IMG/VR virus record: IMGVR_UViG_3300033067_001375
Location: 3,519 to 67,518 of that record
Length of the DNA: 64,000 bases
Strand: one strand, 5' to 3'
Source: a virus
Lineage: Duplodnaviria; Caudoviricetes
In this document: in pieces, positions 3,663-59,030 of the stretch
How the letters are laid out: each line of letters starts with the position of its first letter
Position numbering within the stretch: the first letter of the stretch is position 1
Made by a program: the position numbers and the translations under genes
The notes under the pieces: generated by a model
Database searches by the model: none
The model's input: the letters and a program-made list of their open reading frames with translations, nothing else
What the model was told of the DNA's origin: nothing

Positions 3663-3676
3663 TGTAAACGTTTACA
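3663..3676. promoter_or_regulatory. 14-bp palindrome TGTAAACGTTTACA (copy 1)
   Basis: Perfect copy, intergenic, 11 nt before ATG 3688. Confidence 0.85.
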
Positions 3677-3687
3677 TTTTGCGGGGG

Positions 3688-4023
3688 ATGGTCGTGAGTG
3701 ACGTATCAAAGAAATTGCGATGGTATCAGACAGACTACGGAAGTGGATTTGTGATTTTTATCGGGGCAATTGCTGTAAGCGTGTTAATTAGCTGCGCGTT
3801 GGTTGATTGCAGGCTGGTTGAATATCGCTTGCCGAATGTACCACTAACCGAAACGCCGGAAACCAAAGCACGTTTTGAGGTTGAGTTTCAAGCAACCAAA
3901 TGCGCCCACTCACGCCGTATCGTTGAATGCGGTTATGGTGATGGCGGTCCAAGTTGGTGGGAGTGTGACGACTGTGACAAGCGATGGGAAATCCGCAGCG
4001 AATTGCCGGAATGGAGAAAGTGA
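3688..4023 (+). CDS. Hypothetical membrane protein with C-terminal Cys motif
   Basis: Hydrophobic segment followed by CAH...C...WECDDCD. Confidence 0.65.
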   Translation: MVVSDVSKKLRWYQTDYGSGFVIFIGAIAVSVLISCALVDCRLVEYRLPNVPLTETPETKARFEVEFQATKCAHSRRIVECGYGDGGPSWWECDDCDKRWEIRSELPEWRK

Positions 4024-4086
4024 TACCAATTTGCGGCCTGAAATGCTGCCAAGACTGACGTAGTATTTGGGTAGAGGTAGAGGTTT

Positions 4087-4100
4087 TGTAAACGTTTACA
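4087..4100. promoter_or_regulatory. 14-bp palindrome (copy 2)
   Basis: Perfect copy, 17 nt before ATG 4118. Confidence 0.85.
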
Positions 4101-4117
4101 TTTTCGGGGGACGGACG

Positions 4118-4711
4118 ATGATCGAATGGTTGATGATTGTTGGGTTACTCAACTTACTGGTTGGGTTGCTGATCCTCAAGTATTTGCGGCGTGTTTGGCT
4201 ACAGTTGCTTGAGCTTGCCGCGTACTATGGCGCGTTGAGCGGTATGAATTGGTGGCAACACTCAATCGTTGACTTAACCAAGATCAAGACTAACGGCGGC
4301 CTCAGCCTCAGGGTATTTCCTAGTGACGGTGAGCACGCCAAGACTGACGGCGAAAAGGCCAAGGCTGACGCTGATAAGTCTGATCCGGTCAAGATCATTC
4401 ACGACGGCGATGAGTGGTCAATAACGATTGGCGATAAGTTGCGCGGCCGATACAAAGATGGTCACGAAATGGCCAAGCACTTAGCCTTTGCGTTGATTGA
4501 GATTGAGAAGTCTGAGGTACAAAAGGAGATTGAGGCCGATAACCCAATTATCACTTTCGGCCCTCTCAACGTTGGCGATATGTTCAACACGAAAAGCGGC
4601 CGTTGGGTAAAGCAGAGTGATGAGGACGCGTTGTGTGTTATGTCCGGCGTGCACCCGGTTGGTTGGTCAACGAAGTTCAAGCCAACCGATGATGTTGTTG
4701 TTTTGTACTAA
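4118..4711 (+). CDS. Hypothetical protein with N-terminal TM helix
   Basis: GGGGG SD-like site and ATG after the palindrome; hydrophobic N-terminus. Confidence 0.7.
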   Translation: MIEWLMIVGLLNLLVGLLILKYLRRVWLQLLELAAYYGALSGMNWWQHSIVDLTKIKTNGGLSLRVFPSDGEHAKTDGEKAKADADKSDPVKIIHDGDEWSITIGDKLRGRYKDGHEMAKHLAFALIEIEKSEVQKEIEADNPIITFGPLNVGDMFNTKSGRWVKQSDEDALCVMSGVHPVGWSTKFKPTDDVVVLY

Positions 4712-4738
4712 AACGCGCCCGGCGGCCAACGCGGCTAT

Positions 4739-5170
4739 GTGTTCGTTGATGATTACCCGCCGGCTAATTGGTCAGCGGTGCAAAAAACTGACGAGGATCC
4801 GTTTACCAAGCTGGGGCGTGAGGCGGCTGAGGCACGCGAAAAGCGTGTGCTAGATGCGATAGAGGGCGATGATGAAAGTGTATCGCAACCGTGCAAGTTA
4901 TTCTTGCCGCCTATGGGCGTTTCAGAGGGTAACCCTTATCCGCCTCCCCCAAGCCCTCTTGGTGTAACGCGTTGTGAGTGTGGCTGTCACAGTGGCTTGT
5001 GTCTGCATTGCTTCCCGTGTTGTGAGGGGCGTTGCACGTATTGCGGCAACTGGTTCAAGAGTGGCCTGAGGGAACATGCTCAAGCGTGTGAAGGTTGCCC
5101 GCCAGATAAGCCGGCGGCCCCGCCTGATGAGTACGCCAAGCAGCGTGATTTCGGCCCGACAGTTTTGTAA
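4739..5170 (+). CDS. Hypothetical Cys-rich protein
   Basis: CECGCHSGLCLHCFPCCEGRCTYC cluster; the stop codon lies inside palindrome copy 3. Confidence 0.65.
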   Translation: MFVDDYPPANWSAVQKTDEDPFTKLGREAAEAREKRVLDAIEGDDESVSQPCKLFLPPMGVSEGNPYPPPPSPLGVTRCECGCHSGLCLHCFPCCEGRCTYCGNWFKSGLREHAQACEGCPPDKPAAPPDEYAKQRDFGPTVL

Positions 5171-5179
5171 ACGTTTACA
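5166..5179. promoter_or_regulatory. 14-bp palindrome (copy 3)
   Basis: Perfect copy; supplies the TAA of the upstream gene; 17 nt before ATG 5197. Confidence 0.85.
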
Positions 5180-5196
5180 AAGTTTAGGTTGAGGAT

Positions 5197-5769
5197 ATGA
5201 CCAAACGTGCGGGCAAAGGCTCGAAGAATAAACGGCGGTTGGCGCATGCGGAAGCGTTGACGGCGGACAATCTGAGCCCTGAGGAATCACTTGCACTTGA
5301 GCTTGAGGCCTTGCGGTCGGGTTGGCTTAACGGCTCACCAACGTTTGCAAAAACGCGTGAGGCGTTGCTACTCAAAGCAGCTACCAAGGCCTTAAACGGC
5401 AAGTGTGACGATCAAACGTTTATAAAGCTCATGAGAGCCATTGCCCAAACAGAGCACAGAGAGATAGCCCTAAGGCTACAGGCGGCCTCAATTAGCCTTA
5501 GGGCTCAAGGGAAAGGTGGCGATGATTTGCCAGAGCAGCGCGGCTTGCCAGAGCAAAGGGGCGGCTCAACCGTTGTGATCAACAACAACGTGAGCGGACA
5601 AGATACGGCGCCGGCTCAGGTGCCAACGTTCGAAGTGATTCAACAGTTGATTGCCAAAAGAGAAATACGCGATGCCGCCGATAGACGCCCCCAACATATG
5701 CGAGCTCTTGACGCCGCTGGACCTAGCCCAACATTGCAACCCCAAATTCCTACGGCCCCCGCACTTTGA
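5197..5769 (+). CDS. Putative terminase small subunit
   Basis: Helical protein directly upstream of and overlapping TerL; assignment is positional only. Confidence 0.5.
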   Translation: MTKRAGKGSKNKRRLAHAEALTADNLSPEESLALELEALRSGWLNGSPTFAKTREALLLKAATKALNGKCDDQTFIKLMRAIAQTEHREIALRLQAASISLRAQGKGGDDLPEQRGLPEQRGGSTVVINNNVSGQDTAPAQVPTFEVIQQLIAKREIRDAADRRPQHMRALDAAGPSPTLQPQIPTAPAL

Positions 5770-7927
5770 ACTATTGCAACGTGAGTTTCTTGAGACGTTA
5801 CAGCCAGAAGGTTGGGACGTTCTAATAGCTCAGGCGCCGCCCCGTCACGGCAAGAGTGAGTTTTTGTCCCGGTGGGTACCGTCTTGGTTTCATCTGACCT
5901 ACCCAACTGAGCGGTCAATTCTGACCTCTTACGCGCTTGACCTTGCACGCGATCACTCACGCGAAGTGCGCGATAGGGTGCATGAGTACGCGCCGCTATT
6001 TGGTCACCGTGGCATTGACCGAAAGGTGAGCGGTAATGCTGACTGGAAAATTGCAGACTACGGCGGCGGCATGAAAGCGGCCGGGATCCGTGGGGCGATC
6101 ACTGGGCGTGGTGCAAATCTGTTTTTGATTGATGACTACTTTAAGAATGACGAGGAGGCAGTCAACCAAACTCTCAGGGATAAGCAATGGTCTTGGTTTC
6201 AGACGACGGCAACAACGCGATTCGAGCCCGGTTGTAAGTTGATCGTGTTGGCTTGCCTCGTTGGTGATACGCCCGTCGCTATGGCTGACGGCTCAAGCGT
6301 GCCTATTCGTGATGTGCGGCCGGGCGATAGAGTCAAGACGTTTGACGACGGCCGGTTGGCTACTTCTGTTATTCGTAATCATGCCTCAGTTGGGTACGAC
6401 GACGTGTTCCGTTTGACGTTGCAATCGGGTAAAACGGTGACAGCAAACGCGCGTCACCCGTTTTTAGTTGCACGCAATGGAGCTTTGAAGTGGATCAGGC
6501 TGAGAAACTTGACTACCGGGTTGAGAATCGTAACAACAAAGGCCAGTGGGGTAAGTGGAAAGGGAAAACTTGCCAATGGGAAGGTTGCGAACGGCCGGCA
6601 AAGTGCCGTGGATACTGCCATCACCACTACGCGAAGAAACGCACGCTTGACGGCTACCGTGCCCCCTCTCACAATCCGGAATCTCACCGAAAATCAAGGC
6701 TCAAATATCGCTACGGCATTACGGTTGATGACTACAACGCGTTACTCAAAAAACAACGTGGCGTTTGTGCCGTATGCCGTCAACCGCCAAGCGAGCATAA
6801 CACACGCAAACACCAAGGCGGACGATTGTGCGTTGATCACTGCCATGACACTGGAAAGGTGCGAGCCCTCTTGTGCAACGATTGCAACCTTGCCGCCGGA
6901 TACATTAAGACCAGCGCCGCCGCCGCTCAGTTGGCTCGATACCTCAGAGTTTTTGAGCGACTCAATAGTAGCGATTGAGTTCGCCGGCCGGGCCGAAGTG
7001 TTTGATATTGAGATTGAAGGGACGGGCAACTTCATTGCGGCAGGAATGGTAAGCCACAATACGCGCTGGCATGAGGACGACTTGATTGGCCGAATACTCA
7101 AATACGCCCTTGAAGATTCTGAGGCGCCAATGCGTGTGCGTGAGATACGCTTACCCGCGCTAGCTGAGCCAACCGATGAACAGCCCGACCCACTTGGCCG
7201 GAAAACCGATGAGGCTCTTTGGCCTGAGCGTTACAGCACGGCCGCGCTCAAGGCTAAGCGGTCACTCATGGACGGCTATTGGTTCAACGCGATGTTTCAA
7301 CAGCGGTTGACTTCGCACGGGTTCAACGAATGGCCAAGCGAATATTTCTACGGCGTGATGGCTCAGGATGATGAGTGGCCCGATAGGTTCACGATGAGCG
7401 CAACGGCCTTGGATCCAAGCAAAGGGCGCGATGCCAAGAAAGGTGACTTCTCAGGCATAGTCACGGCCGGTTATCACAAAGGCTACATTTGGCTTGACTG
7501 TGACCTTGAGCGGCGGCCGGTTCCAAAGATGATGCGCGACTTGGTTGACTGGAACAACCAGCGACGGCCAACAGTTACAGGCATTGAAGCGGTTGCATTC
7601 CAAGAGCTCTTGGGTACTGACTACGTTCAAGCTCAGATTGAGGCCGGCGGCTATCGTGATGAGCCTGAGCTTATATACAACAACGTGTCAAAGAATCTTC
7701 GCATTGGCAGGATAGGGACGTGGCTCAGGTTGCATATGCTCAAGATCCGCAACACGCCCGGCGGCAAGCTCTTGCTACAGCAACTTAAAGAGTTTCCCAA
7801 CGCGAAGTATGACGACGGCCCCGATGCCGCCGAGATGGCCATACGGCTCTTGCTAACGCTGAGCGAAGCGTTGGCCGAAATCTTCGTTCAGGCCTCACCG
7901 ATGTATACCGAAAGAATTATCACGTAG
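5651..7927 (+). CDS. terL: Terminase large subunit, intein-containing
   Basis: Walker A PPRHGKS, Walker B LFLIDD, coupling motif LA|TRWHEDDL split by the intein, nuclease acidic motifs ALDPS and YDDGPDA. Start may be ATG 5672. Confidence 0.95.
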   Translation: MPKEKYAMPPIDAPNICELLTPLDLAQHCNPKFLRPPHFELLQREFLETLQPEGWDVLIAQAPPRHGKSEFLSRWVPSWFHLTYPTERSILTSYALDLARDHSREVRDRVHEYAPLFGHRGIDRKVSGNADWKIADYGGGMKAAGIRGAITGRGANLFLIDDYFKNDEEAVNQTLRDKQWSWFQTTATTRFEPGCKLIVLACLVGDTPVAMADGSSVPIRDVRPGDRVKTFDDGRLATSVIRNHASVGYDDVFRLTLQSGKTVTANARHPFLVARNGALKWIRLRNLTTGLRIVTTKASGVSGKGKLANGKVANGRQSAVDTAITTTRRNARLTATVPPLTIRNLTENQGSNIATALRLMTTTRYSKNNVAFVPYAVNRQASITHANTKADDCALITAMTLERCEPSCATIATLPPDTLRPAPPPLSWLDTSEFLSDSIVAIEFAGRAEVFDIEIEGTGNFIAAGMVSHNTRWHEDDLIGRILKYALEDSEAPMRVREIRLPALAEPTDEQPDPLGRKTDEALWPERYSTAALKAKRSLMDGYWFNAMFQQRLTSHGFNEWPSEYFYGVMAQDDEWPDRFTMSATALDPSKGRDAKKGDFSGIVTAGYHKGYIWLDCDLERRPVPKMMRDLVDWNNQRRPTVTGIEAVAFQELLGTDYVQAQIEAGGYRDEPELIYNNVSKNLRIGRIGTWLRLHMLKIRNTPGGKLLLQQLKEFPNAKYDDGPDAAEMAIRLLLTLSEALAEIFVQASPMYTERIIT
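6254..7060 (+). mobile_element. Intein (269 aa) in TerL
   Basis: Block A CLVGDTPVAMADGS, block B-like ANARHPFLV, block F VFDIEIEGTGNF, block G VSHN followed by Thr+1. Removing it restores KLIVLA-TRWHEDDL. Confidence 0.95.
6490..6978 (+). CDS. Endonuclease VII-type (His-Me finger) nuclease nested in the -1 frame of the intein
   Basis: CAVC...LCVDHCHDTGKVRALLCNDCN motif; N-terminal CQWEGC...CRGYCHHHY Zn motif; GGAG 7 nt upstream of GTG 6490. Confidence 0.88.
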   Translation: MDQAEKLDYRVENRNNKGQWGKWKGKTCQWEGCERPAKCRGYCHHHYAKKRTLDGYRAPSHNPESHRKSRLKYRYGITVDDYNALLKKQRGVCAVCRQPPSEHNTRKHQGGRLCVDHCHDTGKVRALLCNDCNLAAGYIKTSAAAAQLARYLRVFERLNSSD

Positions 7928-7963
7928 GCGACAAACTTCTGAGCGGTTGCGGCCTTGCATGTT
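7928..7963 (+). promoter_or_regulatory. Class A promoter-like motif (BCGMCNA-N17-GCCTT)
   Basis: GCGACAA-N17-GCCTTGCATGTT upstream of ORF 7980. Confidence 0.6.
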
Positions 7964-7979
7964 AGAAAGTGAGGGCGCT

Positions 7980-8216
7980 ATGGGGCCAACATACCGAAAC
8001 GCGGCTGAGCGAATCCAAAACGCTTGTGATGATTTCCAAGAGTTGATGACGGCCGCGCGTGATTTAGTGGGCGTTATTCATGCTACATCGCTTGGAATGT
8101 CTATTGATGGGCTCATGGATAACAGTACGCCGAAAGAATTTGTTGATGCTTTGATGGATCACAAAGTTTGGCAAACGTTCATTGACGCACTCACAGAGGT
8201 TGAGGACGAAAGGTGA
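7980..8216 (+). CDS. Hypothetical protein
   Basis: GAGGG SD and ATG downstream of the class A motif. Confidence 0.65.
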   Translation: MGPTYRNAAERIQNACDDFQELMTAARDLVGVIHATSLGMSIDGLMDNSTPKEFVDALMDHKVWQTFIDALTEVEDER

Positions 8217-8218
8217 GT

Positions 8219-8347
8219 ATGTTTTACGACGTGTTCGTGGTAGCGTTGCTGATTGCCTTGTTGGTGCTGGTGACGCATGTAATTACTACCGGGCCTCAAG
8301 GTAATCAGTACAAGCAGCTTGACGACGATGATAGCCCAACTCAGTGA
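8219..8347 (+). CDS. Small membrane peptide (42 aa)
   Basis: Read manually: MFYDVFVVALLIALLVLVTHVITTG...; AGGTGAG upstream. Confidence 0.5.
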   Translation: MFYDVFVVALLIALLVLVTHVITTGPQGNQYKQLDDDDSPTQ

Positions 8348-8585
8348 CCTTGAAAAAACGGCGCTATGGGGTTGGATTGAAGTGCCCGCCCTTGCCTTGT
8401 TGGCAATGTTTTCAGTTATCTTTTCCGTTTGGCATTTCGTGCGTTTTTTATATCCGGTGCTTAAAGAAACGTTTGAAGCGGCCTTGAGTAAGCGGCCGGG
8501 CGTTGAGCCTGAGCCCACGGTTGCAAGTAATCCGAAACCTTTTAGAGAGATTGATTTAGAGGATGATGATGGCAGCAAACCCTAG
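8328..8585 (+). CDS. Small membrane protein
   Basis: Central hydrophobic helix; overlaps both neighbours. Confidence 0.6.
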   Translation: MIAQLSDLEKTALWGWIEVPALALLAMFSVIFSVWHFVRFLYPVLKETFEAALSKRPGVEPEPTVASNPKPFREIDLEDDDGSKP

Positions 8586-9324
8586 CTATTACTCAGACGA
8601 GCGGCGCGTGGTTGAAGATCACTTAGACTATGACGCGATGACTGACAGTGAGCTTGACGCTGAGCACGCGAACGCGTTGTATGTTCTTGGTCTGCGTGAC
8701 CCCGACAAAACTCAGCGTGAGTGGGCGGTTGTTCACGTCAACAATATTGACAACCAGCGCAACAAGCGACGGCCAGCGCCAAGCCCGTGGTATCGTTTCA
8801 TTTTGTGGCTCATTGGTTTCACGCGGCCTTTCAAAGATTTGCAGAGCTACGCGGACAAGCTTGAGGCTGATCACGAAAAGGTTTTGATGGGCGAGGTTAC
8901 GTTCAAGAGTATGGCCTTTGAACGAGGACACGGTTTCACGGCCGTTGTTGGTTGTCGGCTTGCTGCTGATTTGGGTACGGTATGGCTTGACTGGCTCAAT
9001 GAGGTTGGCGCCGAAAACTACATTGAGCAAAAGCTGACTTGTCCAGATGGCTCATTTTTGGTAGTGACGATCAAGCGTGAGCGCGGCAAGAGCCCGCACG
9101 ATTTACGCAACCGTGCCGAGATCAACTTGCTTTGCACTCTCAATATGCTTGTTGATTATGTCAACGCTTGTGGTACGCCTTTGAGTAGCAGTCAACAAGC
9201 TATGTTTGACCGCGTGAAATCAGAGCTCAGGCCTGACTACGTGGATTGCGTTTCACCGTTCAAGTTTACCGACAAACAACCGCCGGCAATCGGCCTTGAG
9301 TCAAAAGGTGAGGGTGAGTTATGA
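8563..9324 (+). CDS. Hypothetical protein
   Basis: 253-aa ORF with a GAGGA SD. Confidence 0.75.
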   Translation: MMMAANPSYYSDERRVVEDHLDYDAMTDSELDAEHANALYVLGLRDPDKTQREWAVVHVNNIDNQRNKRRPAPSPWYRFILWLIGFTRPFKDLQSYADKLEADHEKVLMGEVTFKSMAFERGHGFTAVVGCRLAADLGTVWLDWLNEVGAENYIEQKLTCPDGSFLVVTIKRERGKSPHDLRNRAEINLLCTLNMLVDYVNACGTPLSSSQQAMFDRVKSELRPDYVDCVSPFKFTDKQPPAIGLESKGEGEL

Positions 9325-9587
9325 GCGGGCTTTACATCGCGATTGCGTTTGTGTTCATCAACTTGGTTTGGTCATTCGCCTATTGGCTTGGCTACTACGT
9401 TGGGCACAAGCACGGGCTCAGGGACGGTGTAGAGCAAGCTGAGCCGTTGCGATGGTATGCCGAATTTGTGGTCAAGGGCTTCGATCACATTGATGGTTGC
9501 GACAGTGGCCGTTGCTGCTACTACTGCGAAGCGGAATGGGCGTTAGAACGTTTCAACTATGGACCGTATCAAAATGGGCAAAAGTAA
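9321..9587 (+). CDS. Small membrane protein with Cys motif
   Basis: ATGA coupling; N-terminal TM segment; CDSGRCCYYC. Confidence 0.65.
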   Translation: MSGLYIAIAFVFINLVWSFAYWLGYYVGHKHGLRDGVEQAEPLRWYAEFVVKGFDHIDGCDSGRCCYYCEAEWALERFNYGPYQNGQK

Positions 9588-9852
9588 TTGTTTGGTGTTG
9601 GAGACGGTTGAGTTTCGTTTTAAGACGAAAACTAGCCAAGGGTTTTTGGCTGACTGGGTTTTGATATTCGCCAAGGACAAAGTAAGCGTTGGCGGAAACG
9701 GCAACGTTTACAACTATCGCATTCTCGACAAGAGCCTCAAGCCTTGTGAGACTCACGCGCGGCGGATAGTAGACTTTGCGGCCGGTGCTTCGGATATGCC
9801 GTTGCAGAATGTGCGCGGCGATGACAAGCCGTGCCTTGAGGTATTGGAATGA
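9574..9852 (+). CDS. Hypothetical protein
   Basis: Overlapping operon arrangement. Confidence 0.6.
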   Translation: MGKSNCLVLETVEFRFKTKTSQGFLADWVLIFAKDKVSVGGNGNVYNYRILDKSLKPCETHARRIVDFAAGASDMPLQNVRGDDKPCLEVLE

Positions 9853-10091
9853 GCGACAAAGTTGTTGTGTACCCAAGCGATTGGGAATTGTGCATAGCGT
9901 CACGCGAAGGGCTCAAGCCTTGCCCGTTTTGCGGAAGCGGCGTTAGTGCGTGCACTGAGCAAAACGTTGTCACGAAAAATTTCATCGCTTCGATATTCTG
10001 CGTTAGGTGCATGGCCCGTGTTAGTTACACAGCGGTCAAGAAATCAGAGGCTCAATCAAAGGTGGAGGCCAGTTGGCAATGCCGCGTGTAA
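9849..10091 (+). CDS. Lar-like (restriction alleviation) zinc-ribbon protein
   Basis: LKPCPFCG...IFCVRC motif. Confidence 0.65.
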   Translation: MSDKVVVYPSDWELCIASREGLKPCPFCGSGVSACTEQNVVTKNFIASIFCVRCMARVSYTAVKKSEAQSKVEASWQCRV

Positions 10092-10318
10092 CGATAGACG
10101 GAGTTGAGTACGTGCCACGGGCCGAAGTGCCAGAGCTCAACGATGAGCGATTGCAGGCGGCATTAGAGAGCCTGACAGAGATACAATATTTCAGCGATCA
10201 AAGGCACAAGCACAGAGCTTGGGCATGGGACGCCCTCAACGCGCTAGCGCCTGAGCTTGCAGAGTTGGCGGGTAGTAATCCTCAGGCGGCGTTTGACCGC
10301 GTGCGTGGCGACAAATGA
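10073..10318 (+). CDS. Hypothetical protein
   Basis: VTIDGVEYVP N-terminal motif common in phage small proteins; GGAGG SD. Confidence 0.65.
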   Translation: MAMPRVTIDGVEYVPRAEVPELNDERLQAALESLTEIQYFSDQRHKHRAWAWDALNALAPELAELAGSNPQAAFDRVRGDK

Positions 10319-10351
10319 TTCGGGCATGGTGGCGTTGCAAGTGGCTTTCTG

Positions 10352-10534
10352 ATGGGACATACGATGAGCACTACAAATAAGATTGACTTTTGCACGGCGG
10401 CGGCGGCCTTGCTATCGGTGTTTTTCTGCCTATTCAATTCCGGCGCAACCTGCGAGCTTGGTTGGTTTGTTGCGGCTATCGCGTGGTGCTTAGCGTCTTT
10501 TTGTTCTTTCAGATTGGCTTATCGCAATGAATAA
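10352..10534 (+). CDS. Small two-TM membrane protein
   Basis: Two hydrophobic segments. Confidence 0.5.
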   Translation: MGHTMSTTNKIDFCTAAAALLSVFFCLFNSGATCELGWFVAAIAWCLASFCSFRLAYRNE

Positions 10535-10757
10535 GCAAGCGGATGCGTTGCCGTTGCCGCCGGGTATTTGCTGGGTGTGCCGCGAAAAGGCCTCTCACGT
10601 CAGTTTTGGCGCGTTGTGCGAGGATTGTTGGGCAGACAGTATGGCCCGCTGCTTTCCGGCGCCTATGCGGCTCCCACGGCTTACAGAGCGGAAGCAAGAC
10701 ACCTGGGCTGAGGCGCGCCGGCGTGAAAGCGAATTGGCCGAACAAAAAGAATTCTGA
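10527..10757 (+). CDS. Small zinc-finger protein
   Basis: CWVC...LCEDC. Confidence 0.55.
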   Translation: MNKQADALPLPPGICWVCREKASHVSFGALCEDCWADSMARCFPAPMRLPRLTERKQDTWAEARRRESELAEQKEF

Positions 10758-10773
10758 AAACTTTCTGAATTGA

Positions 10774-10809
10774 GCGCCCAAGCGCCCGCCCGGTTGAGCC
10801 TTGTACTAT
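10774..10809 (+). promoter_or_regulatory. Class A promoter-like motif
   Basis: GCGCCCA-N17-GCCTTGTACTAT followed by a GGGCCAA/TTGGCCC hairpin. Confidence 0.7.
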
Positions 10810-10863
10810 GTGGGCCAAGTGATTTGGCCCGGTAGTAACTCTCAAAGATTGGGAAACAAGCAA

Positions 10864-11319
10864 ATGAACTATGTGGAAGCCGCAACCGCAATTGAGCCAG
10901 CCCCGTTTGAGCCAGCCGTTGAGACAGGAAAGCCTTTTGATATCGCAACGCACAACGGCTATATCACGATCACTTCGAAGGAAAGCGGCGTTCATCGAAC
11001 GTTTCGCATTCACACTCAGAAAGTTGACGCGAAGTTTGCCCCCGGCGAGCGGCTGGTTGGCCTCTTGATCGGTTCGGACAATGAGCACGATTACAAGGAT
11101 TTCGCGTTCATCGGCAACAACGGCCGCGTTATTTTGTGGAAAAAGCACCGAGGCGACAAGTTTTATGAGTGGGCGGCCAAGGCTCTTGAGAATCCCCAAG
11201 ATTGGTTGGCCAAGTGTGATATCAGCTTTGACGGCCGTTGCCGCAAGTGCAATCGGTTGCTCACGGATCCAACCAGCGTAGAGCTTGGAATTGGCCCGAA
11301 ATGCCGTGGTGATGAGTAG
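10864..11319 (+). CDS. DUF6011-like protein
   Basis: LLIGSDNEHDY...GRCRKCNRLLTDPTSVELGIGPKC. Confidence 0.75.
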   Translation: MNYVEAATAIEPAPFEPAVETGKPFDIATHNGYITITSKESGVHRTFRIHTQKVDAKFAPGERLVGLLIGSDNEHDYKDFAFIGNNGRVILWKKHRGDKFYEWAAKALENPQDWLAKCDISFDGRCRKCNRLLTDPTSVELGIGPKCRGDE

Positions 11320-11327
11320 TCGGTTTT

Positions 11328-11341
11328 TGTAAACGTTCGCC
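11328..11341. promoter_or_regulatory. Degenerate palindrome copy
   Basis: TGTAAACGTT then divergent; intergenic after ORF 10864 and followed by a GC hairpin. Confidence 0.45.
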
Positions 11342-11481
11342 CGGTCACGCGGCCGGGCTCATCGGGTGATATCGTGAATCAGCTACTTTATTTTATTATT
11401 GGTTTCGTTCTGCCGGTTGTGGTGTATTGCGCCTAGCTTTGTCCGATCAGTTGATCCGTGAGCGAATCGAAAGGGTAAACG

Positions 11482-11826
11482 ATGACTAACACACGAAGCG
11501 AATTCTTGCAGTTCGGCCAATGCGGTCCGCTAGATGACCCTGACCGGCCGGAAATCGGTAGTTTGATCAATTATGAGCCTGACCCCGACAACAAAAACTC
11601 ACGCCCCGGCGTTTATGTCGTGAGGCACGTTGAGGCCGTAATGCAAAGCTCAGTGATGCGCGAGGCGTTGTCTAAGGTGCCTAAGGGGGAAACGCTAATG
11701 AGCCCGGCGTTGTTCGCTACTGAGGAATGTATGGCGCGTGTTCATTTTCATCGGCCGTTTGTGTTGTGGTTGATTTGGTGTGATCGTGTTGGCGATTTGC
11801 CGGCGTTGCCGGCAAGCAGTTTGTAA
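11482..11826 (+). CDS. Hypothetical protein
   Basis: ORF with an AGGG SD. Confidence 0.6.
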   Translation: MTNTRSEFLQFGQCGPLDDPDRPEIGSLINYEPDPDNKNSRPGVYVVRHVEAVMQSSVMREALSKVPKGETLMSPALFATEECMARVHFHRPFVLWLIWCDRVGDLPALPASSL

Positions 11827-11837
11827 GGATTGATGGC

Positions 11838-12419: not shown

Positions 12420-12562
12420 TTGCAGATGAGGATACACCAGCGTCAACGTGCGCAGAGTCGTGTTGCTGTTTGTCCGGTTGTCTGCTGATCGTGGCAACGT
12501 TCGCGTTGATCGTGATAGGCTTTTCAACCGTGGCGGTTCTCACGGTAAAGTTTATTTGGTGA

Positions 12563-12598: not shown

Positions 12599-12635
12599 GG
12601 GTCAACTGATTGGCGTTCAAGGCAAAGGGTTCAAT

Positions 12636-51263: not shown

Positions 51264-51267
51264 TTTT

Positions 51268-51281
51268 TGTAAACGTTTACA
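51268..51281. promoter_or_regulatory. 14-bp palindrome (copy 12)
   Basis: Perfect copy between the AAA and sigma genes. Confidence 0.85.
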
Positions 51282-51500
51282 AGCCGCCCGGCCGATAAAT
51301 ACAAAATTGGCCGGGATGGCTTGATCCGCCTACGCGGCGGAGCTAGACTGTCCCCCGGTAAATAAGCAAGCACGCAAATGATTGCGGCAAACTCTCTAAA
51401 ACAATATGGGCCTTAGGTCAGCCGCCCCGCGAAAGCGGCGGTTTGCTTGACCGACCAAGCGGTTGACCTCTGGCCCTCCTTTCAAGATGAAAGATTGCAA

Positions 51501-52070
51501 ATGACAACTCTCGAACTGGCTATCAGCGGTGATTCTGACGCGGCCGCCCAAGTGATCGAAAACGTTGCCAAGCGTGTTCGGTATCTTTGCACCAAAGCGA
51601 ACTACAAAATTACGGCCGTACGTGCGGACGCAGATGACGCGGCTCAAATGGCCCTTGTGCGAATCTATCAAGCTCTTGTTGGCGGTGACTGTGCCGTCAT
51701 GGATCCAAACGCGTTTGGCTGGTTCGTGTTTCGCCAAGCCCGTAACGCGTGCCGTCTGATCGAAAATACACACGGCCGCAAAAAGCGTGAGATAGCCAGG
51801 GAGGCCGCAAGCTTCGATGATGCTGACGCCGGTTGTACGGTTGTCAGCAGTGACAAGCCGGCCGATGAGCGAGCCGTAGAAACAGAGCTCATCGGCGCAC
51901 TTATGGCCATGGTCAAGCGTGATGATGACCGGGCGATACTCAACGGCATTCTTGACGGCATGACGATCAATGAGATTGCCGCCGGCCTCAAGGTTTCCCC
52001 AGCGTTTGTTTACACGCGTCTACAGAAGATTCGCGCAAAGGCGCGTACTCAGTTGGCGCAATTGGTCTAG
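51501..52070 (+). CDS. ECF-type RNA polymerase sigma factor
   Basis: Region 2 (A..GD..A....; DADDAAQ.AL; FGWF...ARN) and region 4 HTH (GMTINEIA..L.VS...VYTRL.KIR). Confidence 0.88.
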   Translation: MTTLELAISGDSDAAAQVIENVAKRVRYLCTKANYKITAVRADADDAAQMALVRIYQALVGGDCAVMDPNAFGWFVFRQARNACRLIENTHGRKKREIAREAASFDDADAGCTVVSSDKPADERAVETELIGALMAMVKRDDDRAILNGILDGMTINEIAAGLKVSPAFVYTRLQKIRAKARTQLAQLV

Positions 52071-52299
52071 TTGCTCAATGGTTGTGAACAACCCGCGAAA
52101 CTGATAAGCGATAACCGGAAAGGCGCGGCTTGCCGTAGCCCGGTTGGAATTGGCTCACAGTGCACAATGTAAAGCTAAGGTTGTTGAAGTGCCTGAGCTC
52201 ACGCCACATAGAGGGCAGTAATTGGGTGAAGGCGTCAGTAACTGAACCGAGCATTGTTTGCTTAGCTTCCAAGAGCAACGTTTTATTTTGAGGTTTTTA

Positions 52300-53013
52300 A
52301 TGGCTTGGAAAGTAACGGCTTACACTGGCAAGCGTAGGGACAAGATTCTTGGCTCAACGTACGTTCGAGCCGATACAGAGGACAAGGCCAAAGAGATTGG
52401 CCGAAAGGCTTTGCGGCTGATCGGTATCAAGGGTAAGTATCAGGTATCAGCGGCGGTTTACCGCCCTGAGAACGATTGGGCGTTTTTTGGGTATCTGGCA
52501 AGGGTTGAGGTAATCGTGCATCGCGTTGCTGGCGTTGTGGTTTGGCGGGATTATTTGGAGGAAAAGATGAGCGAGTCAAGCATAGGCATACAGTTGCTAC
52601 ATCCATTCTGCTTTACCAATCCAGGTAAGTGGTCAGACGGTTTTAATGAGCATGGCATTTTTGAGATTGTCGGACTGGACGAACTTTCTGGCCGAGTCCC
52701 GAAAGCAACTATTCGACGAATTGCATCATTCAAAGCTGACTGCATGATTGGCGAAGTGGCAAAGACACCAACACATCGCATTAAAAGCCGAGCAGTTCGG
52801 ACATCGCTTCATAGCTTTTCGGAGCATGCTGATTTCAACCAACTAACCGCCGCCCAGTCGCGAGTGGCGGAGCTGGAGAAACTGCTGCGAATCGTCAATG
52901 TGCAACTGGGCAATATCGAGTTCAATATTCGGCAGGAATCAGTAGCCAACCCAAGCAAAGAGGACTGGCTGCGAATTGTACGATCAGTGCTGGAGCAATT
53001 GAATGGAAAGTAA
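52300..53013 (+). CDS. Hypothetical protein, possibly two fused genes (internal GGAGG-ATG at 52568)
   Basis: Continuous ORF with an apparent composition change near 52550. Confidence 0.6.
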   Translation: MAWKVTAYTGKRRDKILGSTYVRADTEDKAKEIGRKALRLIGIKGKYQVSAAVYRPENDWAFFGYLARVEVIVHRVAGVVVWRDYLEEKMSESSIGIQLLHPFCFTNPGKWSDGFNEHGIFEIVGLDELSGRVPKATIRRIASFKADCMIGEVAKTPTHRIKSRAVRTSLHSFSEHADFNQLTAAQSRVAELEKLLRIVNVQLGNIEFNIRQESVANPSKEDWLRIVRSVLEQLNGK

Positions 53014-53138
53014 CTGTGCATGTGGCAACGAGTCCGGCACAAACGACGAATGCGAGCGATGCCGACTGATTGACCAGTTGAAAGCGGCCCAGAATCGAGT
53101 GGGACCGTGGCTGGCTGGACACCCACGGCCCTGGGCTC

Positions 53139-53375
53139 TTGGCTTTGCGCCTAGCGTGCGCACGCGGGACGGTTGACGCTGTGGCCGTCAACAAGGCGTT
53201 CGATGAGGGGCCGGCCGTTCCAGTGTTCAAGACGGCCGCACAGGCGGCTAAGCATGGACGGAGAGCGATCAACCGGCCCGGCCGCAAGGCAAAGGCGTTG
53301 GTTGAGAAGATCGAAACCAAGCGGTTAAAAAATAAAATCCGCACAAGCGGCAAAATCGGAAAAAAGACCGACTAG
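53139..53375 (+). CDS. Basic hypothetical protein, start uncertain
   Basis: Frame is open from 53082; no clear start codon. Confidence 0.4.
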   Translation: MALRLACARGTVDAVAVNKAFDEGPAVPVFKTAAQAAKHGRRAINRPGRKAKALVEKIETKRLKNKIRTSGKIGKKTD

Positions 53376-53404
53376 TTTTTCCGTATACGCGGCCTTTACT
53401 TTAT
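53368..53404 (+). promoter_or_regulatory. Class A promoter-like motif
   Basis: CCGACTA-N17-GCCTTTACTTTAT followed by the CCGGG/CCCGGTA hairpin leader. Confidence 0.65.
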
Positions 53405-53455
53405 GAGCCGGGTAGTTCGCCCGGTAGAATAGTTTCAAAGATTGGAGCAAAGTAA

Positions 53456-54463
53456 ATGAGTGACGCGATGACCACAACAACCGATTTGCCAGCCGGGTTC
53501 GTTATTCCTGAGGCTCAGCAAGAGGCGGCCCCAGTGGCCCCAGCGGCAACCCCAAGTGCCATTGAGTTTGGCAAGAAACTGCAAGAGCAAACGAGCGGTT
53601 GTGCGTTGCACACGTACGCGCTCAGCCGCCGCCGAACTATGTCACGCGGTGCCCTCAACCAAGTGGCCGGCATGTTTGAAGCGGAAACCGATTCGATTGG
53701 CGGATCCCGCGAGATTATCAGCCGCAAGCACGAATTCGTTAAGCCGGTCTATATGCTGCTTGACCGCGCGAAAGACTTGGTGCGCACCTATACGATTGAC
53801 TACCCTGAAAAGGGCGTGCGGCTGATCAAGATTGATCGAATCGAATTGGTTGTTGGTAAGATCAACGAAATTCGCGATGAGCTCAACAAGGCGTTGTTGG
53901 CCTTGCGTGACAACTGGCAATCGGTCAAAGATGACGCCAAAAATCGGTTGGGCAATCTCTACAACGAGGGTGACTATCCACTTGACCCAACGGTTGGCTA
54001 TGGCGTTGAGCTCACGTTTCCAGCGATCAAGCCGGATGATCGTTTGGCTCAATTACACCCTGAGCTTTTCAAGCAAGAGCAAGAGCGTATTGCGGCCCGA
54101 TTCGCTGACGCGGTGAAACAAGCCGAGGCAGTGGCGGCCGATGAGCTCACCAAAATGCTTGATCACTTGATTGAGCGGCTGACGCCGGCCGATGGCGGAT
54201 CCAAGAAAACGTTGCATGAGACGACGGTAACCAACTTGGTTGACTTCGCTAAGCGGTTCAAGGATATGAGCGTAGGTAGCAACGCTGACCTTGAGGCCTT
54301 GGTTGCCGAAGTGGAAAAGGCGGCCAGCGGCATTGACGTTAAGACGTTGCGAAAGAGCGACGGCGGTGCCATCGGCAAGATCAAAGAAAAGGTGCAAGGG
54401 TTGCGGGCCAAGATGGATGAGCTTGTCATTGCCCGGCCGATTCGCGAGCTCGATTTGGATTAA
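53456..54463 (+). CDS. DUF3150-like helical protein
   Basis: ...RLGNLYNEGDYP... pattern and long helices; ends RELDLD. Confidence 0.55.
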   Translation: MSDAMTTTTDLPAGFVIPEAQQEAAPVAPAATPSAIEFGKKLQEQTSGCALHTYALSRRRTMSRGALNQVAGMFEAETDSIGGSREIISRKHEFVKPVYMLLDRAKDLVRTYTIDYPEKGVRLIKIDRIELVVGKINEIRDELNKALLALRDNWQSVKDDAKNRLGNLYNEGDYPLDPTVGYGVELTFPAIKPDDRLAQLHPELFKQEQERIAARFADAVKQAEAVAADELTKMLDHLIERLTPADGGSKKTLHETTVTNLVDFAKRFKDMSVGSNADLEALVAEVEKAASGIDVKTLRKSDGGAIGKIKEKVQGLRAKMDELVIARPIRELDLD

Positions 54464-54479
54464 ATTTTTTCGATGGGCC

Positions 54480-54515
54480 GCGCCTAGTTTTTCGCCGGGC
54501 GCGGCCTTTCATTGT
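54480..54515 (+). promoter_or_regulatory. Class A promoter-like motif inside a 10-bp inverted repeat
   Basis: GCGCCTA-N17-GCCTTTCATTGT; GGCCGCGCCT/GGGCGCGGCC stem at 54476-54506. Confidence 0.65.
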
Positions 54516-54550
54516 AGGCTGATCGGTAACAAGCAAACTGAGGGTTAAAA

Positions 54551-55012
54551 ATGTCACACGTCACAACGGTTGATTTGGAAGTTAAGGATTTAGATTGCCT
54601 CGCAAAGGCGGCTGAGTTTCTTGGTCTTGAGCTTGTACGCGATGTTAAAACGTACAAGTGGTGGGGGCGGTTTGTGGGCGATTACAACGACCCGGCAATC
54701 AAGGCTATGGGCCTGACGCCTGAGAATCACGGCAAGTGTGAGCACAAGCTACGCGTAAAGGGCGCCGGTTCTGAGACGTATGAGATTGGCCTTGTGATGG
54801 TCGACGGCTCATGGCGGCTCTTATTTGACTTCTACGCGGGCGGTAATGGCCTCATGCAAAAGATCAGCCGCGTTGGCGCACGCGGTAAGGATTGCGATTT
54901 GTTGGTGCAAGAGTACGCGGCCGAAGTGGCTAAAAAGCAACTGCGCCGCAAGGGTCTACGGTTCACCGAACGCCGCGAAAACGGCAAGATCAAGCTCACG
55001 GCTCAGGTTTAA
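54551..55012 (+). CDS. DUF1257 (Ycf35-like) protein
   Basis: MSH...V...VKDLDCL.KA...LG...EIGL...DG.W.L.FD.Y...L.QEYA. Confidence 0.82.
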   Translation: MSHVTTVDLEVKDLDCLAKAAEFLGLELVRDVKTYKWWGRFVGDYNDPAIKAMGLTPENHGKCEHKLRVKGAGSETYEIGLVMVDGSWRLLFDFYAGGNGLMQKISRVGARGKDCDLLVQEYAAEVAKKQLRRKGLRFTERRENGKIKLTAQV

Positions 55013-55028
55013 TTTTCAGCGCAAGTTT

Positions 55029-55042
55029 TGTAAACGTTTACA
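55029..55042. promoter_or_regulatory. 14-bp palindrome (copy 13)
   Basis: Perfect copy, 17 nt before ATG 55060. Confidence 0.85.
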
Positions 55043-55059
55043 ACGTTCAAAGGTGAATC

Positions 55060-55251
55060 ATGGCAGGGACAATTGACATTGAGATTGATGAAAAGGGCGC
55101 CGCAACCGTCAAGGTGCAAGGCGTTGCTGGCAAGTCTTGCAAAGATTTGACGGCCAATATTGAGGCCGCGCTTGGCAAGGTTGCCAAGACTGAGCCCACG
55201 CGGGAAATGAATAGCCCGGCCGTTCACAAGCGTACTCAGGGGCAAAAGTAA
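55060..55251 (+). CDS. DUF2997 protein
   Basis: I.I.ID..G...VKV.G..G.SC..LT..IE.ALG.V.....T.E. Confidence 0.85.
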   Translation: MAGTIDIEIDEKGAATVKVQGVAGKSCKDLTANIEAALGKVAKTEPTREMNSPAVHKRTQGQK

Positions 55252-56146: not shown

Positions 56147-56377
56147 ATGTTAGTTTTACAGCGCCAAGAGGGCGAAAAGATCATTTGCCGAATTGAAGAT
56201 ATTGAGGCTTTGAAAAATGGGGATGAAATCGTTATTGATATCGCGTCGGCTCGCGGCAATCGGATCAAGGTGGGCATTGAGGCGCCGCTTGCAATTCGAA
56301 TCTTGCGGGCTGAGCTTGCGGACGATAGTAATTTCGGAAACCGGAGAGATAAGCTACCTATCAGCCCAAACGCTTGA
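56147..56377 (+). CDS. csrA: CsrA-like RNA-binding regulator
   Basis: MLVL.R..GE.I...G..IKVGIEAP..I.ILR.EL. Confidence 0.85.
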   Translation: MLVLQRQEGEKIICRIEDIEALKNGDEIVIDIASARGNRIKVGIEAPLAIRILRAELADDSNFGNRRDKLPISPNA

Positions 56378-57149: not shown

Positions 57150-57174
57150 CGTGAGTAGTTTTGAGTGTTGAGTT

Positions 57175-57188
57175 TGTAAACGTTTACA
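57175..57188. promoter_or_regulatory. 14-bp palindrome (copy 14)
   Basis: Perfect copy, 17 nt before ATG 57206. Confidence 0.85.
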
Positions 57189-57205
57189 AGGATTGGGTTG
57201 ATCGA

Positions 57206-57625
57206 ATGACGAAAGAGATTGATGATGTGAAAGCGGCCGATGATGCTGTGGCGGCTGAGGCCGAGACGGATCCAACGCCGGCTGAGAAAAAACGCAAGAC
57301 GTTTTCGCTGGGGGACAAAATCAAGATCGTTGATTTGCTACGCGGCCGCGTTGAGCCCTTCATTGATGACACAAAAGATGGCGTTGCGCGACAAGTTTCT
57401 GAGGCAACCGGCGTTGATATGCCGGCAAGTAGTTTGTACTACCTTGTTGATGAGTTGCCAGAGTTCAAGCTTGCCGAAAAACTGATCGTCAAGACTGAGC
57501 CGAAAATGATGGAGCAACAAGTCAAAGAGCTTGAGCGCGAAGTGAGTAAGCTCAACGAAACGGTGACGTTGCTCACTTCGCAAGTGTTCGAGATGGCGGC
57601 TATCGTTCGGTGGGATGGTAGATAA
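57206..57625 (+). CDS. Hypothetical protein with a C-terminal coiled coil
   Basis: ORF following the palindrome. Confidence 0.65.
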   Translation: MTKEIDDVKAADDAVAAEAETDPTPAEKKRKTFSLGDKIKIVDLLRGRVEPFIDDTKDGVARQVSEATGVDMPASSLYYLVDELPEFKLAEKLIVKTEPKMMEQQVKELEREVSKLNETVTLLTSQVFEMAAIVRWDGR

Positions 57626-57652
57626 GGTTTAATAAGGTTTAGCAACTGAACT

Positions 57653-58582
57653 ATGGCACTGACACCACAACAGATTGCGGCCCGCCAATTTCGGATTGGT
57701 GGGTCAGAGCTTGCGGCGATCATCGGGGACAACCCGTATTGTTCGCCATACGAATTGTGGGCGCGAAAAACAAATCGTTTACGTGTCAACTATTCAGATG
57801 AGGAAAATGAAGCGATTGAGCTCGGTAACATGATCGAGCCGTTGCTACTCAGTTGGTTTGAAATACGGCAAGGCAAACCGATTGAGCGCGGTGGTGAGGT
57901 TGCAAGTGACGACGGCCTAGTTGTCACGCTGCTTGATGGAAAGTTTTACGACAACTCAGCGGTGGTTGAGGCTAAGACCTCGATGCTTGCCGGGTGGTCA
58001 CGCAAGCTTGCCGATCAATGGACGCGTGAAAGTTTCCCGCGCTACTACTGGTGGCAAATTCAAGCTCAGATGCACGCGGCGAAGATCCCCAAGGGGTTTC
58101 TCATTGCGCTCATCGGCGGCAAGGGCCGTGTAGTGTACGAGGTTGAGTATGATCAAGAGACGATTGTTAAGGCTCTTGAGGTTGCGCGTGAGTGGTGGGA
58201 TTTGCACGTTGGCTTTGATCAAGAGCCGCTAGCGGTACCGCCAAAGGACGCCGATGTTATCCGGCGCATGCACGCAAAGATCGGTGAGGCAGTTGAGCTA
58301 ACCGATGAGGACGCCGATGATGTTGACCGGGCCAATGAGTTGAACGATGAGGCCACGGAGCTCATTAAAAACGTCAAGGCAATCAAGGCGGCTCTTGCGT
58401 GCAAGATGGGTGAGGCAACCGAGGGTTTGCTTCCCGATGGACGGCTAGTCTCTTTCAGAGAAAAGAACGTCAAGGGTTATTGGGTAAAGCCGCGTACGCA
58501 ACGTGAGCTAAGATTACCCAAAACGATTAAGCTGGAAGCTGAGGACGATGACGAAAGCGAAGATTTCGCCGCGTTCGAATGA
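57653..58582 (+). CDS. YqaJ-like (lambda-exonuclease family) nuclease
   Basis: R...IGGSE...I.G.NPY.SP..LW..KT; LDG; EAKT; Y..Q.Q.QM. Confidence 0.92.
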   Translation: MALTPQQIAARQFRIGGSELAAIIGDNPYCSPYELWARKTNRLRVNYSDEENEAIELGNMIEPLLLSWFEIRQGKPIERGGEVASDDGLVVTLLDGKFYDNSAVVEAKTSMLAGWSRKLADQWTRESFPRYYWWQIQAQMHAAKIPKGFLIALIGGKGRVVYEVEYDQETIVKALEVAREWWDLHVGFDQEPLAVPPKDADVIRRMHAKIGEAVELTDEDADDVDRANELNDEATELIKNVKAIKAALACKMGEATEGLLPDGRLVSFREKNVKGYWVKPRTQRELRLPKTIKLEAEDDDESEDFAAFE

Positions 58583-58604
58583 TGAGCCGCCGGGCTTTGC
58601 GGCG

Positions 58605-58964
58605 ATGCTCAATGGCTATGGTGACTTGTTGCTTGGTGCGCTTATCGTTGACCCTTCGCGGATCCATGACGAAAACGTTGCCAAGCTACAGGTCACCGAT
58701 TGCCCCTCAGAGCTCTTGCAACGCGTTGTAGTGACGTTGCGATACAAAGCTGACATAGATGAGCGGGCGCTTGCTGGGGCGTGCGTGGTTGGCTACGGCT
58801 ACTCATGCCGGGCTGAGCTAGTCAACGCCACGGCTCACGCAGTGCCGTATCTTGCCGGTTGGTACGCGGCAAACATTCGAAGGTTGCAGCGTTCGCGGCG
58901 GTTGTTTTGGAAGTACGCCCGAAAGACTGAGGAGGCCCGGTTGAAAATGTTGCGTGATTTCTGA
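58605..58964 (+). CDS. Hypothetical protein
   Basis: ORF between the exonuclease and annealing protein; start uncertain. Confidence 0.55.
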   Translation: MLNGYGDLLLGALIVDPSRIHDENVAKLQVTDCPSELLQRVVVTLRYKADIDERALAGACVVGYGYSCRAELVNATAHAVPYLAGWYAANIRRLQRSRRLFWKYARKTEEARLKMLRDF

Positions 58965-59016
58965 TTCGAAGCGACCAAAGTTGTCCGGATCCGGCGTTAA
59001 ATGGTAGCCTGAGTTT

Positions 59017-59030
59017 TGTAAACGTTTACA
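59017..59030. promoter_or_regulatory. 14-bp palindrome (copy 15)
   Basis: Perfect copy, 10 nt before ATG 59041. Confidence 0.85.

Follow-up and report, generated by a model that had tools for sequence, protein, structure and literature searches.

A genome-wide array of invariant 14-bp palindromes at gene junctions of a probable planctomycete phage: possible docking sites for a twofold-symmetric reader

Introduction

Cluster O mycobacteriophages carry a 17-bp dyad repeat, TGTTCGGNNNCCGAACA, in 34 invariant copies that lie between genes, at their 5' ends and inside them and that are absent from the host; its function is unknown, and a dimeric regulator has been suggested (PMC4351075). The stoperators of Cluster A phages (L5 gp71) are short sites in intergenic gaps at which binding blocks elongation, and these sites, which have an orientation and no symmetry, are bound by a monomeric immunity repressor with which their consensus co-varies between lineages (PMC6550527). 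Dispersed near-perfect palindromes are also known from plasmid RK2, where one protein, KorB, exerts genome-wide control through the OB operators (PMC11790492). Here we analyze an array formed by a perfect 14-bp palindrome, TGTAAACGTTTACA, in a phage contig of 67,518 bp (IMG/VR virus record IMGVR_UViG_3300033067_001375). The stretch under study, referred to as the window, comprises bases 3519-67518 of this contig (64,000 nucleotides), and positions below are window positions unless another contig is named; G000 denotes the whole contig of this phage, while other G-numbers and L-numbers denote genomes and contigs of its relatives.

The closest published analogue of the array is the Cluster O repeat. 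Both comprise tens of invariant dyad copies distributed genome-wide (17 here) at gene junctions and 5' ends, with occasional insertions or deletions at the sites, and in the present case the positions are conserved among relatives with gain and loss of single sites, and the sequence is not enriched in 401 Planctomycetota genomes. In contrast to the Cluster O repeat, the palindrome described here belongs to an unrelated phage lineage and host phylum, is 14 bp long and uninterrupted, is strictly non-coding and start-proximal, and has a fixed centre with lineage-specific arms, a feature not described for Cluster O. With the stoperators the array shares its genome-wide distribution; it differs from them in being a perfect palindrome and in that no repressor or integrase was identified in this phage. 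The recognition helix of a candidate reader family, that of the protein encoded at 14588-15211, varies with the site in part, with counter-examples. Cluster K mycobacteriophages reportedly carry start-associated sequences, said to have been described by Pope et al. in 2011, which are short, conserved, asymmetric motifs placed a few bases upstream of many start codons and overlapping the ribosome-binding site, whereas the present motif is palindromic and lies upstream of a separate Shine-Dalgarno sequence.

As set out below, the array is real and under selection. We tentatively propose that its members are places on double-stranded DNA at which a symmetric reader docks, a protein that would be encoded by the phage, co-evolve with the site arms and gate genes at the junctions of this phage, an explanation that we consider possible rather than probable.

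Results

An invariant palindrome confined to gene junctions

The window contains 15 exact copies of the palindrome, all of them where a first-pass annotation of this DNA had placed them, compared with no copy expected from 100 dinucleotide-preserving shuffles, and two more exact copies just upstream of the window bring the total to 17 per 67.5-kb contig. Allowing up to two mismatches adds only three sites, at 23722, 35128 and 47367, and the family is therefore nearly free of degenerate members. The variants at 23722-23735 (one mismatch, 18 nt ahead of the ATG at 23754, with a perfect copy at the corresponding position L132:9175 of a close relative) and at 47367-47380 (two mismatches, 17 nt ahead of the minus-strand start at 47349) had been recognized before, together with a third at 11328-11341, TGTAAACGTTCGCC, which follows the stop of the gene at 10801-11319 and turned out to be half-degenerate, with only the left ten bases kept. 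The two-mismatch site at 35128, which was missing from that earlier list, lies within a gene of 883 codons and may be due to chance. The flanks are also constrained: among the 17 copies, T is found at position -1 in 15, at -2 in 14 and at -3 in 12, and A at +1 in 13, which gives the extended consensus TTT-TGTAAACGTTTACA-A. The flanking T-run keeps to the plus strand throughout, the leftward operon included.

All 17 copies lie outside coding DNA apart from overlaps with stop codons, although a crude gene call assigns about 87% of the contig to genes. A G-run resembling a Shine-Dalgarno sequence and a start codon follow at a distance of 9-22 nt in 11 of the 15 window copies and 12 of the 17 contig copies, in agreement with the earlier statement that most copies stand 9-20 nt before a start. 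The site at 3663-3676 is located 6 nt past the stop of a gene for a ParB_N-domain methyltransferase and 11-17 nt ahead of the open reading frame (ORF) 3688/3694-4023, and those at 4087-4100, 55029-55042 and 57175-57188 each stand 17 nt ahead of an ATG (4118, 55060 of a DUF2997-like ORF, and 57206, respectively). Shorter distances separate the sites at 26961-26974 (9 nt to the ATG at 26984), at 34246-34259 (16 nt to the ATG at 34276) and at 59017-59030 (10-16 nt to the ATG cluster of an exonuclease gene ending at 60081) from the genes that follow. Some copies also supply the TAA stop of the preceding gene. Three such cases had been reported, at 5166-5179 (stop of 4739-5170, 17 nt ahead of the ATG at 5197 of the likely small terminase), at 33333-33346 (stop of a Fer4_19-like ORF, 20 nt ahead of the tail-tube gene 33367-34236) and at 38411-38424 (stop of 37690-38415, 15 nt ahead of the ATG at 38440), and a fourth was found on the minus strand at 21918-21931, where the copy lies in the leftward operon, ends the gene 21927-22382(-) and precedes the start of 21519-21899(-) by 18 nt. 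The site hugs the downstream start even where a gap of 25-342 nt separates it from the upstream stop, and the genes preceded by sites include those for scaffold, tail-tube and chaperone proteins.

Start proximity has exceptions. The copy at 21450-21463 lies between convergent genes, that at 43078-43091 is 72 nt ahead of the ATG at 43164, that at 48818-48831 belongs to a divergent control region, and that at 51268-51281 is found 4 nt past an AAA-ATPase gene and at least 165 nt upstream of the gene for a sigma factor of the ECF type (51447/51501-52070); a further copy, 77 nt upstream of the window start, is 54 nt from a start codon. At 21450 the homology to contig L132 starts exactly with the palindrome, beside a cassette insertion or deletion of about 1 kb: L132:5835-6907, compared with window 21387-21449, contains an insertion of about 1 kb with extra minus-strand genes whose right edge is this palindrome. 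The array also leaves a stretch of 16 kb without sites, and spacing in this phage is not more even than random.

A separate bipartite motif at operon starts

A second repeated element, GCGMCNAA-N16-GGCCTT, has 14 matches where 0.4 are expected and marks operon starts, with 23-27 nt from GCCTT to the start codon. Its matches lie on the plus strand at 7928, 9269, 10774, 12563, 20020, 49626, 53368, 54480, 56100 and 63064 and on the minus strand at 48807 and 22500, while two more (36831 and 5245, both minus) are embedded in genes of the opposite strand and could be fortuitous. This motif likely represents a promoter class, which is possibly read by the ECF sigma factor of the phage. It occupies the 16-kb palindrome-free stretch as well as most operon starts, and the palindromes are therefore not needed to explain promoters.

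These observations bear on the idea that the palindromes themselves form a second promoter class, or a promoter-proximal element, for a phage-directed form of RNA polymerase that would produce very short leaders. In line with this idea, palindromes and bipartite motifs occupy separate intergenic gaps except at 48.8 kb, where the palindrome at 48818 lies 10 nt upstream of the leftward motif at 48807; their distances to the start codon are alike; and the scaffold, tail-tube and chaperone genes have a site in front of them. However, perfect dyad symmetry is atypical for a promoter, a conserved second element at a fixed distance is lacking, the palindrome at 21450 has no gene to drive, many sites in relatives lie inside genes, and no phage RNA polymerase was found on the contig, so that a promoter function appears quite unlikely to us. 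Scans of bases 1-20000 for sigma-70 promoters and intrinsic terminators gave no more matches than expected from shuffles, and the terminators did not coincide with the sites.

One centre and changing arms among relatives

Relatives were fetched via homologs of the capsid protein, and the genomes with palindromes fall in a well-supported clade of 46 rows in the capsid tree. Each lineage of this clade has its own multi-copy palindrome with the same AACGTT centre and with outer positions that are symmetric and lineage-specific (for example TCT..AGA, ACT..AGT, TGG..CCA and GGC..GCC). The closest relative, L132, whose major capsid protein (MCP) is 90% identical, has the same 14-mer in six copies within 20 kb at syntenic junctions. 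In L135 and L136 the sequence is TCTAAACGTTTAGA, which is also found at the junction ahead of the tail-tube gene that corresponds to window 33333, and in L138, where the site syntenic to 33333 is likewise a variant palindrome, it is ACTAAACGTTTAGT with 10 copies in 21 kb. Further forms are GGTAAACGTTTACC in L145, TTGGAAACGTTTCCAA in G008 and G019, TGGCAACGTTGCCA in L150 and several other contigs, GTGGAAACGTTTCCAC with 21-23 copies in 60 kb in G007, G011 and G012, and CAAACGTTTG with 57 copies in 64 kb in G006, in which AAACGTTT occurs 62 times compared with two occurrences of the reversed control. The core itself differs in L137 (TTGCAACGTTGCAA), and G009 (L233-L235) has no AACGTT palindrome. 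In its place an imperfect palindrome of 18 bp with an unrelated sequence, AGGTC(T/A)CGCGCG(A/T)GACCT, is present in about 17-25 copies (e.g. minus-strand 9307, 18979, 25139 and 37689); it is followed by TTTGGAG and a start codon and takes the same junction position. No array was found in the outgroup lineages, in a few genomes within the clade (G013, G018) or in the prophage relatives present in Planctomycetota genomes (MCP identity at most 47%), and G001, with 40-50% amino-acid identity, has a single copy of the 14-mer together with a non-palindromic repeat of its own. As a separate observation, four viral contigs with a GC content of 40-43% (L025, L030, L044 and L079) contain two or three exact copies of the same 14-mer with G/C flanks, which bracket a small-terminase-like gene beside a LexA-like winged-helix ORF and the gene for a large terminase that is 38% identical to that of this phage.

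In alignable blocks of about 70% nucleotide identity, about half of the sites are exactly conserved, compared with about 1% by chance, and the others were gained or lost. Judged from these alignments, such conservation with turnover is how selected binding sites would be expected to behave. The sites are spaced more evenly than random in G006 (mean 1,015 bp, coefficient of variation 0.45, p<0.0005), G011 and G007. The centre, which is unable to pair in a hairpin, is self-complementary in every lineage, and the arms switch on both sides and are uniform within each genome. A self-complementary centre with symmetric switches of the arms is the pattern predicted for a twofold-symmetric protein that would bind duplex DNA.

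The first-pass annotation had raised the possibility of an RNA hairpin for processing or translational control. In this view, the palindrome would act as a short hairpin 5' of the ribosome-binding site, bound by a protein or nuclease for processing, stability or translational control. The 12 of 17 sites within 9-22 nt of a start codon, which track the downstream gene rather than the upstream stop, are consistent with this, as are the start-proximal sites of L138, L145 and L132 and the similar position of the unrelated palindrome in G009, and the clade encodes one to three homologs of CsrA. However, the RNA core folds with only -0.9 kcal/mol, or -3.7 kcal/mol with its flanks, and thus forms no stable structure, and the Shine-Dalgarno sequence is not sequestered. 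The variant copies show no asymmetry of the G-U type, and the uniformity of the arms within a genome leaves no compensatory drift. In addition, sites occur between convergent genes, a third to half of the sites of G007 and G006 lie inside conserved protein-coding segments, and in G006 and the TGG group sites stand close to start codons about as often as randomly placed ones would, so that translation initiation is not what the arrays have in common. CsrA is equally frequent in genomes without arrays, and the motif lacks GGA. A role as an RNA hairpin is thus unlikely.

The first-pass annotation had also proposed a host LacI-type sensor. The palindromes would then be ideal operators for a host regulator of the LacI/GalR family, through which phage expression would be tied to the carbon state of the host or the repressor would be titrated. 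Judged from its capsid relatives, the host is very probably a planctomycete: of 362 relatives detected by capsid in 185,579 species genomes, the best 80 are nearly all from Planctomycetota (Pirellulales, Planctomycetaceae, Thermoguttaceae), and many of these lie within megabase contigs. By inspection, the fit of the 14-mer to the LacI/CcpA cre consensus TGWAANCGNTNWCA is real, with its palindromic form and central CG, and all clade variants retain a AANCGNTT centre, which is typical of LacI-family operators. The identical 14-mer also appears in a publication on CcpA of S. aureus. On the other hand, TGKAAACGTTTMCA occurs in 14 of 401 Planctomycetota genomes with one or two copies each, about the same as its reversed control, although this test is a weak one because it covered the exact site only, natural operators are degenerate, and the phylum was sampled rather than an identified host. 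Closely related phages moreover switch arms (GGAAAC and GGCAAC are interleaved on the capsid tree), which would call for a different host factor each time, and the copy number and perfection of the sites far exceed those of natural LacI/GalR regulons, including that of CcpA, whose operators resemble the palindrome in length, central CG and core. No LacI-family protein is encoded by the phage itself: the earlier statement that the window has no such gene was borne out contig-wide by a six-frame search with PF00356, in which the best match scored 12 bits against a cut-off of 27 bits, so that no LacI helix-turn-helix (HTH) was detected. Taken together, these results weaken the proposal, and an operator for a host LacI-type sensor seems improbable.

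The bare hexamer AACGTT is over-represented 3- to 6-fold in genomes with arrays (83 occurrences in G000 compared with 14-27 expected), and 65 of the 83 lie outside the array, mostly in coding DNA and with the symmetric flanks MAACGTTK. In relatives without arrays it is nearly absent, with none in 69 kb of G014 and two each in G009 and G001. These extra hexamers could be low-affinity core sites for the same reader; alternatively, the contrast could arise if some of these phages avoid restriction sites and the others are protected from restriction. Such a restriction-modification origin, in which the sites serve as preferred targets or decoys for a phage methyltransferase or for a host enzyme of the AclI type, would agree with the distribution of the hexamer, with the two N6/N4 methyltransferases of the phage and with its avoidance of other 6-bp palindromes, but it leaves the invariance over 14 bp, the lineage-specific arms and the junction placement unexplained, and methyltransferases are present in array-less genomes too. 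We therefore regard it as very unlikely to account for the array.

Finally, the palindromes had been suggested to provide short homology for gene-cassette exchange. The homology between G000 and L132, which sets in again with the first base of the palindrome at 21450 beside the indel of about 1 kb, would fit this suggestion, and deletions between repeats are known from Cluster O (PMC4351075). In five other genome pairs, however, the ends of homology fall within 25 nt of a site in 0/28, 0/42, 0/44, 0/30 and 1/36 cases (1/180 together), which is the chance level, and for G000 and L132 the value of 1/12 against about 0.2 expected is not significant. Cassette exchange is thus a highly improbable function of the sites, and recombination at them is at most an occasional by-product.

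Candidate readers

The leading, unproven candidate for a reader is a 207-amino-acid protein whose gene, at 14588-15211 on the minus strand, and the portal gene are divergently oriented. The protein combines a three-helix HTH at its N-terminus with a winged helix of the Xis/MerR type in its middle; its AlphaFold model has a predicted local distance difference test score (pLDDT) of 84.5 and shows two DNA-binding modules, and a Foldseek search with the HTH model returned nothing at E<=0.001. The HTH family of this protein is present in 7/7 complete genomes with arrays, G009 included, and in 0/3 complete genomes without, and among 27 informative loci there is no array without it. G007 and G012, which have the same motif, do not differ in its recognition helix, and the helix of G011 is near-identical to theirs. 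Lineages whose arms differ also differ in the helix, and the strongest departures are those of L137 and G009, where the core of the site differs.

A clamp of the ParB/KorB type, which would load at the sites in a CTP-dependent manner and spread over the phage genome, was considered as another kind of reader. Proteins with a ParB_N domain (phrog_620) occur in all six complete genomes with AACGTT arrays, the even spacing in G006, G007 and G011 and the in-gene sites, as seen with parS, would suit such loading, and KorB with its palindromic OB operators on RK2 offers a precedent (PMC11790492). Unlike KorB, which is a full ParB with an HTH and a CTPase clamp, the ParB_N proteins of the clade combine a ParB_N/Srx domain with an acidic tail and zinc ribbon or with a methyltransferase, and none has an HTH. 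By eye, their sequences are very similar across genomes with AACGTT arrays, with the CGCG palindrome (G009) and with no array (G013), while those of G000 and G006 belong to a different subfamily from that of G007, and the Pfam ParB_N match in G000 is below the cut-off. The parS consensus is TGTTNCACGTGAAACA; the palindrome does not match it, sharing only the TGT...ACGT...ACA outline and being 14 rather than 16 long. Clamp loading therefore appears quite improbable as the purpose of the sites. ParB_N/Srx proteins in the clade are either standalone proteins of about 200 amino acids with a C-terminal CxxC zinc ribbon or fusions to an N6/N4 methyltransferase; examples are encoded at G007:34070-34582 and G009:5159-5656, the G009 copy having an in-frame TAA.

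Several other products were rejected as readers. The ParB_N-methyltransferase of this phage, encoded at 2349-3656 on the plus strand, has no HTH and does not track the motif. ORF 60115 had been described as ParB-like and named as a possible binding partner, but no ParB family was detected in sequence searches of Pfam, PHROGs, NCBIfam or the PDB, and it has no family or structure match by sequence. The ORF at 48255-48719 beside the control-region site gave a single-sequence model with a pLDDT of 62 and no significant fold match. A module of an AAA/Ycf46-like ATPase with DUF1257-like and DUF2997-like proteins is present in all array genomes but also in the array-less G001, G013 and G018, and CsrA homologs are equally frequent in genomes without arrays. 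No gene cluster that is strictly confined to array genomes is shared with G000.

Gene content of the phage

Among the products of the contig are a large terminase with an intein in its sequence (PF14890, 5651-7927), a portal with a C-terminal ADP-ribosyltransferase domain (PF03496) in one ORF of 1589 codons (15258-20027), which in several relatives is a separate portal of about 570 amino acids, a capsid protein of family PF25209, a tail tube protein, an SF2 helicase and exonucleases. In addition to the ParB_N fusion to an N6/N4 methyltransferase it has a second methyltransferase. Its ECF-type sigma factor belongs to PF07638, and the nearest Atlas clusters are mostly from Planctomycetota. The CsrA homolog (PF02599, 45.6 bits) is encoded at 56147-56377 on the plus strand; most genomes of the phage group have such homologs, up to three in G007 and G012, with or without arrays. 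The AAA/Ycf46-like ATPase, a 335-amino-acid protein and the DUF1257-like and DUF2997-like ORFs form a module at 49713-55251 that is found in many clade members and was not found in G009, G010 and G014. No tRNA was detected on the contig. Across the whole contig CACGTG (9.5 expected), CCCGGG (14.4), GGGCCC (7.4) and ATGCAT (6.4) are each absent, which looks like restriction-site avoidance.

Searches of 50,697 phage records gave no match, either by megablast of 24 kb or by tblastn of the portal and sigma factor, nor did a scan of viral contigs with a single protein, the portal. In metagenomes, about 1,400 proteins homologous to the capsid protein were found, and complete relatives with terminal repeats are 60-69 kb long. 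The sequencing runs listed for this phage consisted of DNA data or contigs, with no RNA run among them, and some carried the label riverine metagenome.

Discussion

The placement of the palindromes, their conservation with turnover and the symmetric arm changes throughout the clade would be explained if the AACGTT centre is read together with the lineage-specific arms by a sequence-specific protein of twofold symmetry, the gene for which most probably belongs to the phage. In this phage the sites are confined to junctions, where they usually precede the ribosome-binding site of the following gene at a short distance, and a protein bound there would stand in the way of RNA polymerase as it moves into that gene. 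The array might thus act as a genome-wide transcription gate, an operator or roadblock in the spirit of the stoperators, that would work alongside the separate bipartite promoters. The suggestion made in the first-pass annotation that the palindromes are loading sites for a phage DNA-organizing protein survives here in the more general form of a docking protein, while the ParB-like protein put forward for that role did not find support.

Several points weigh against this interpretation. In this phage the sites stand so close to start codons that a promoter-proximal role, or one at the level of RNA, would fit as well, and the effect on transcription is purely what we infer. With respect to the protein encoded at 14588-15211, the link between its HTH family and the arrays is largely phylogenetic, with about two independent contrasts (the outgroups, and the loss of both within the clade in G013). 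L158 and G007 share a motif and differ in the recognition helix, G001 and L139 carry a protein of this family and no AACGTT array, and the gene for the candidate itself has no site within 5 kb in G000. Structural matches are at the level of domains and middling (Z 5-7 in a VIA search) and include excisionases and small-terminase DNA-binding domains, and the modelled fold would be compatible with either of these functions as well.

A bolder extension of the docking-site proposal, which we consider rather unlikely as a whole, is that the palindromes constitute an "address code", in which each lineage would mark its genome with its own AACGTT-core palindrome, placed at junctions between genes and, in certain lineages, at a density of roughly one per kilobase, to be read by a co-evolving phage protein that combines an HTH with an Xis-like domain. 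Lineages would then fall into specificity groups like immunity groups, possibly in phages that are not temperate, and the core hexamer would be enriched in genomes with the system, as in G000, and purged from relatives without it.

Phage-wide palindrome arrays have been on record since Cluster O, and what is new here is a deep comparative series with a fixed centre and symmetrically switching arms, which includes gain and loss of sites, sites within genes, and relatives that dropped the system or replaced the palindrome. With this series, the options are reduced to a symmetric reader that recognizes duplex DNA and co-evolves with it, and a few proteins emerge that may fill this role. The array further gives a glimpse of gene regulation in phages that infect Planctomycetota, a phylum for which hardly any phage has been characterized. 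If the reader were confirmed, matched pairs of sites and proteins with distinct specificities would represent orthogonal parts for gene control.

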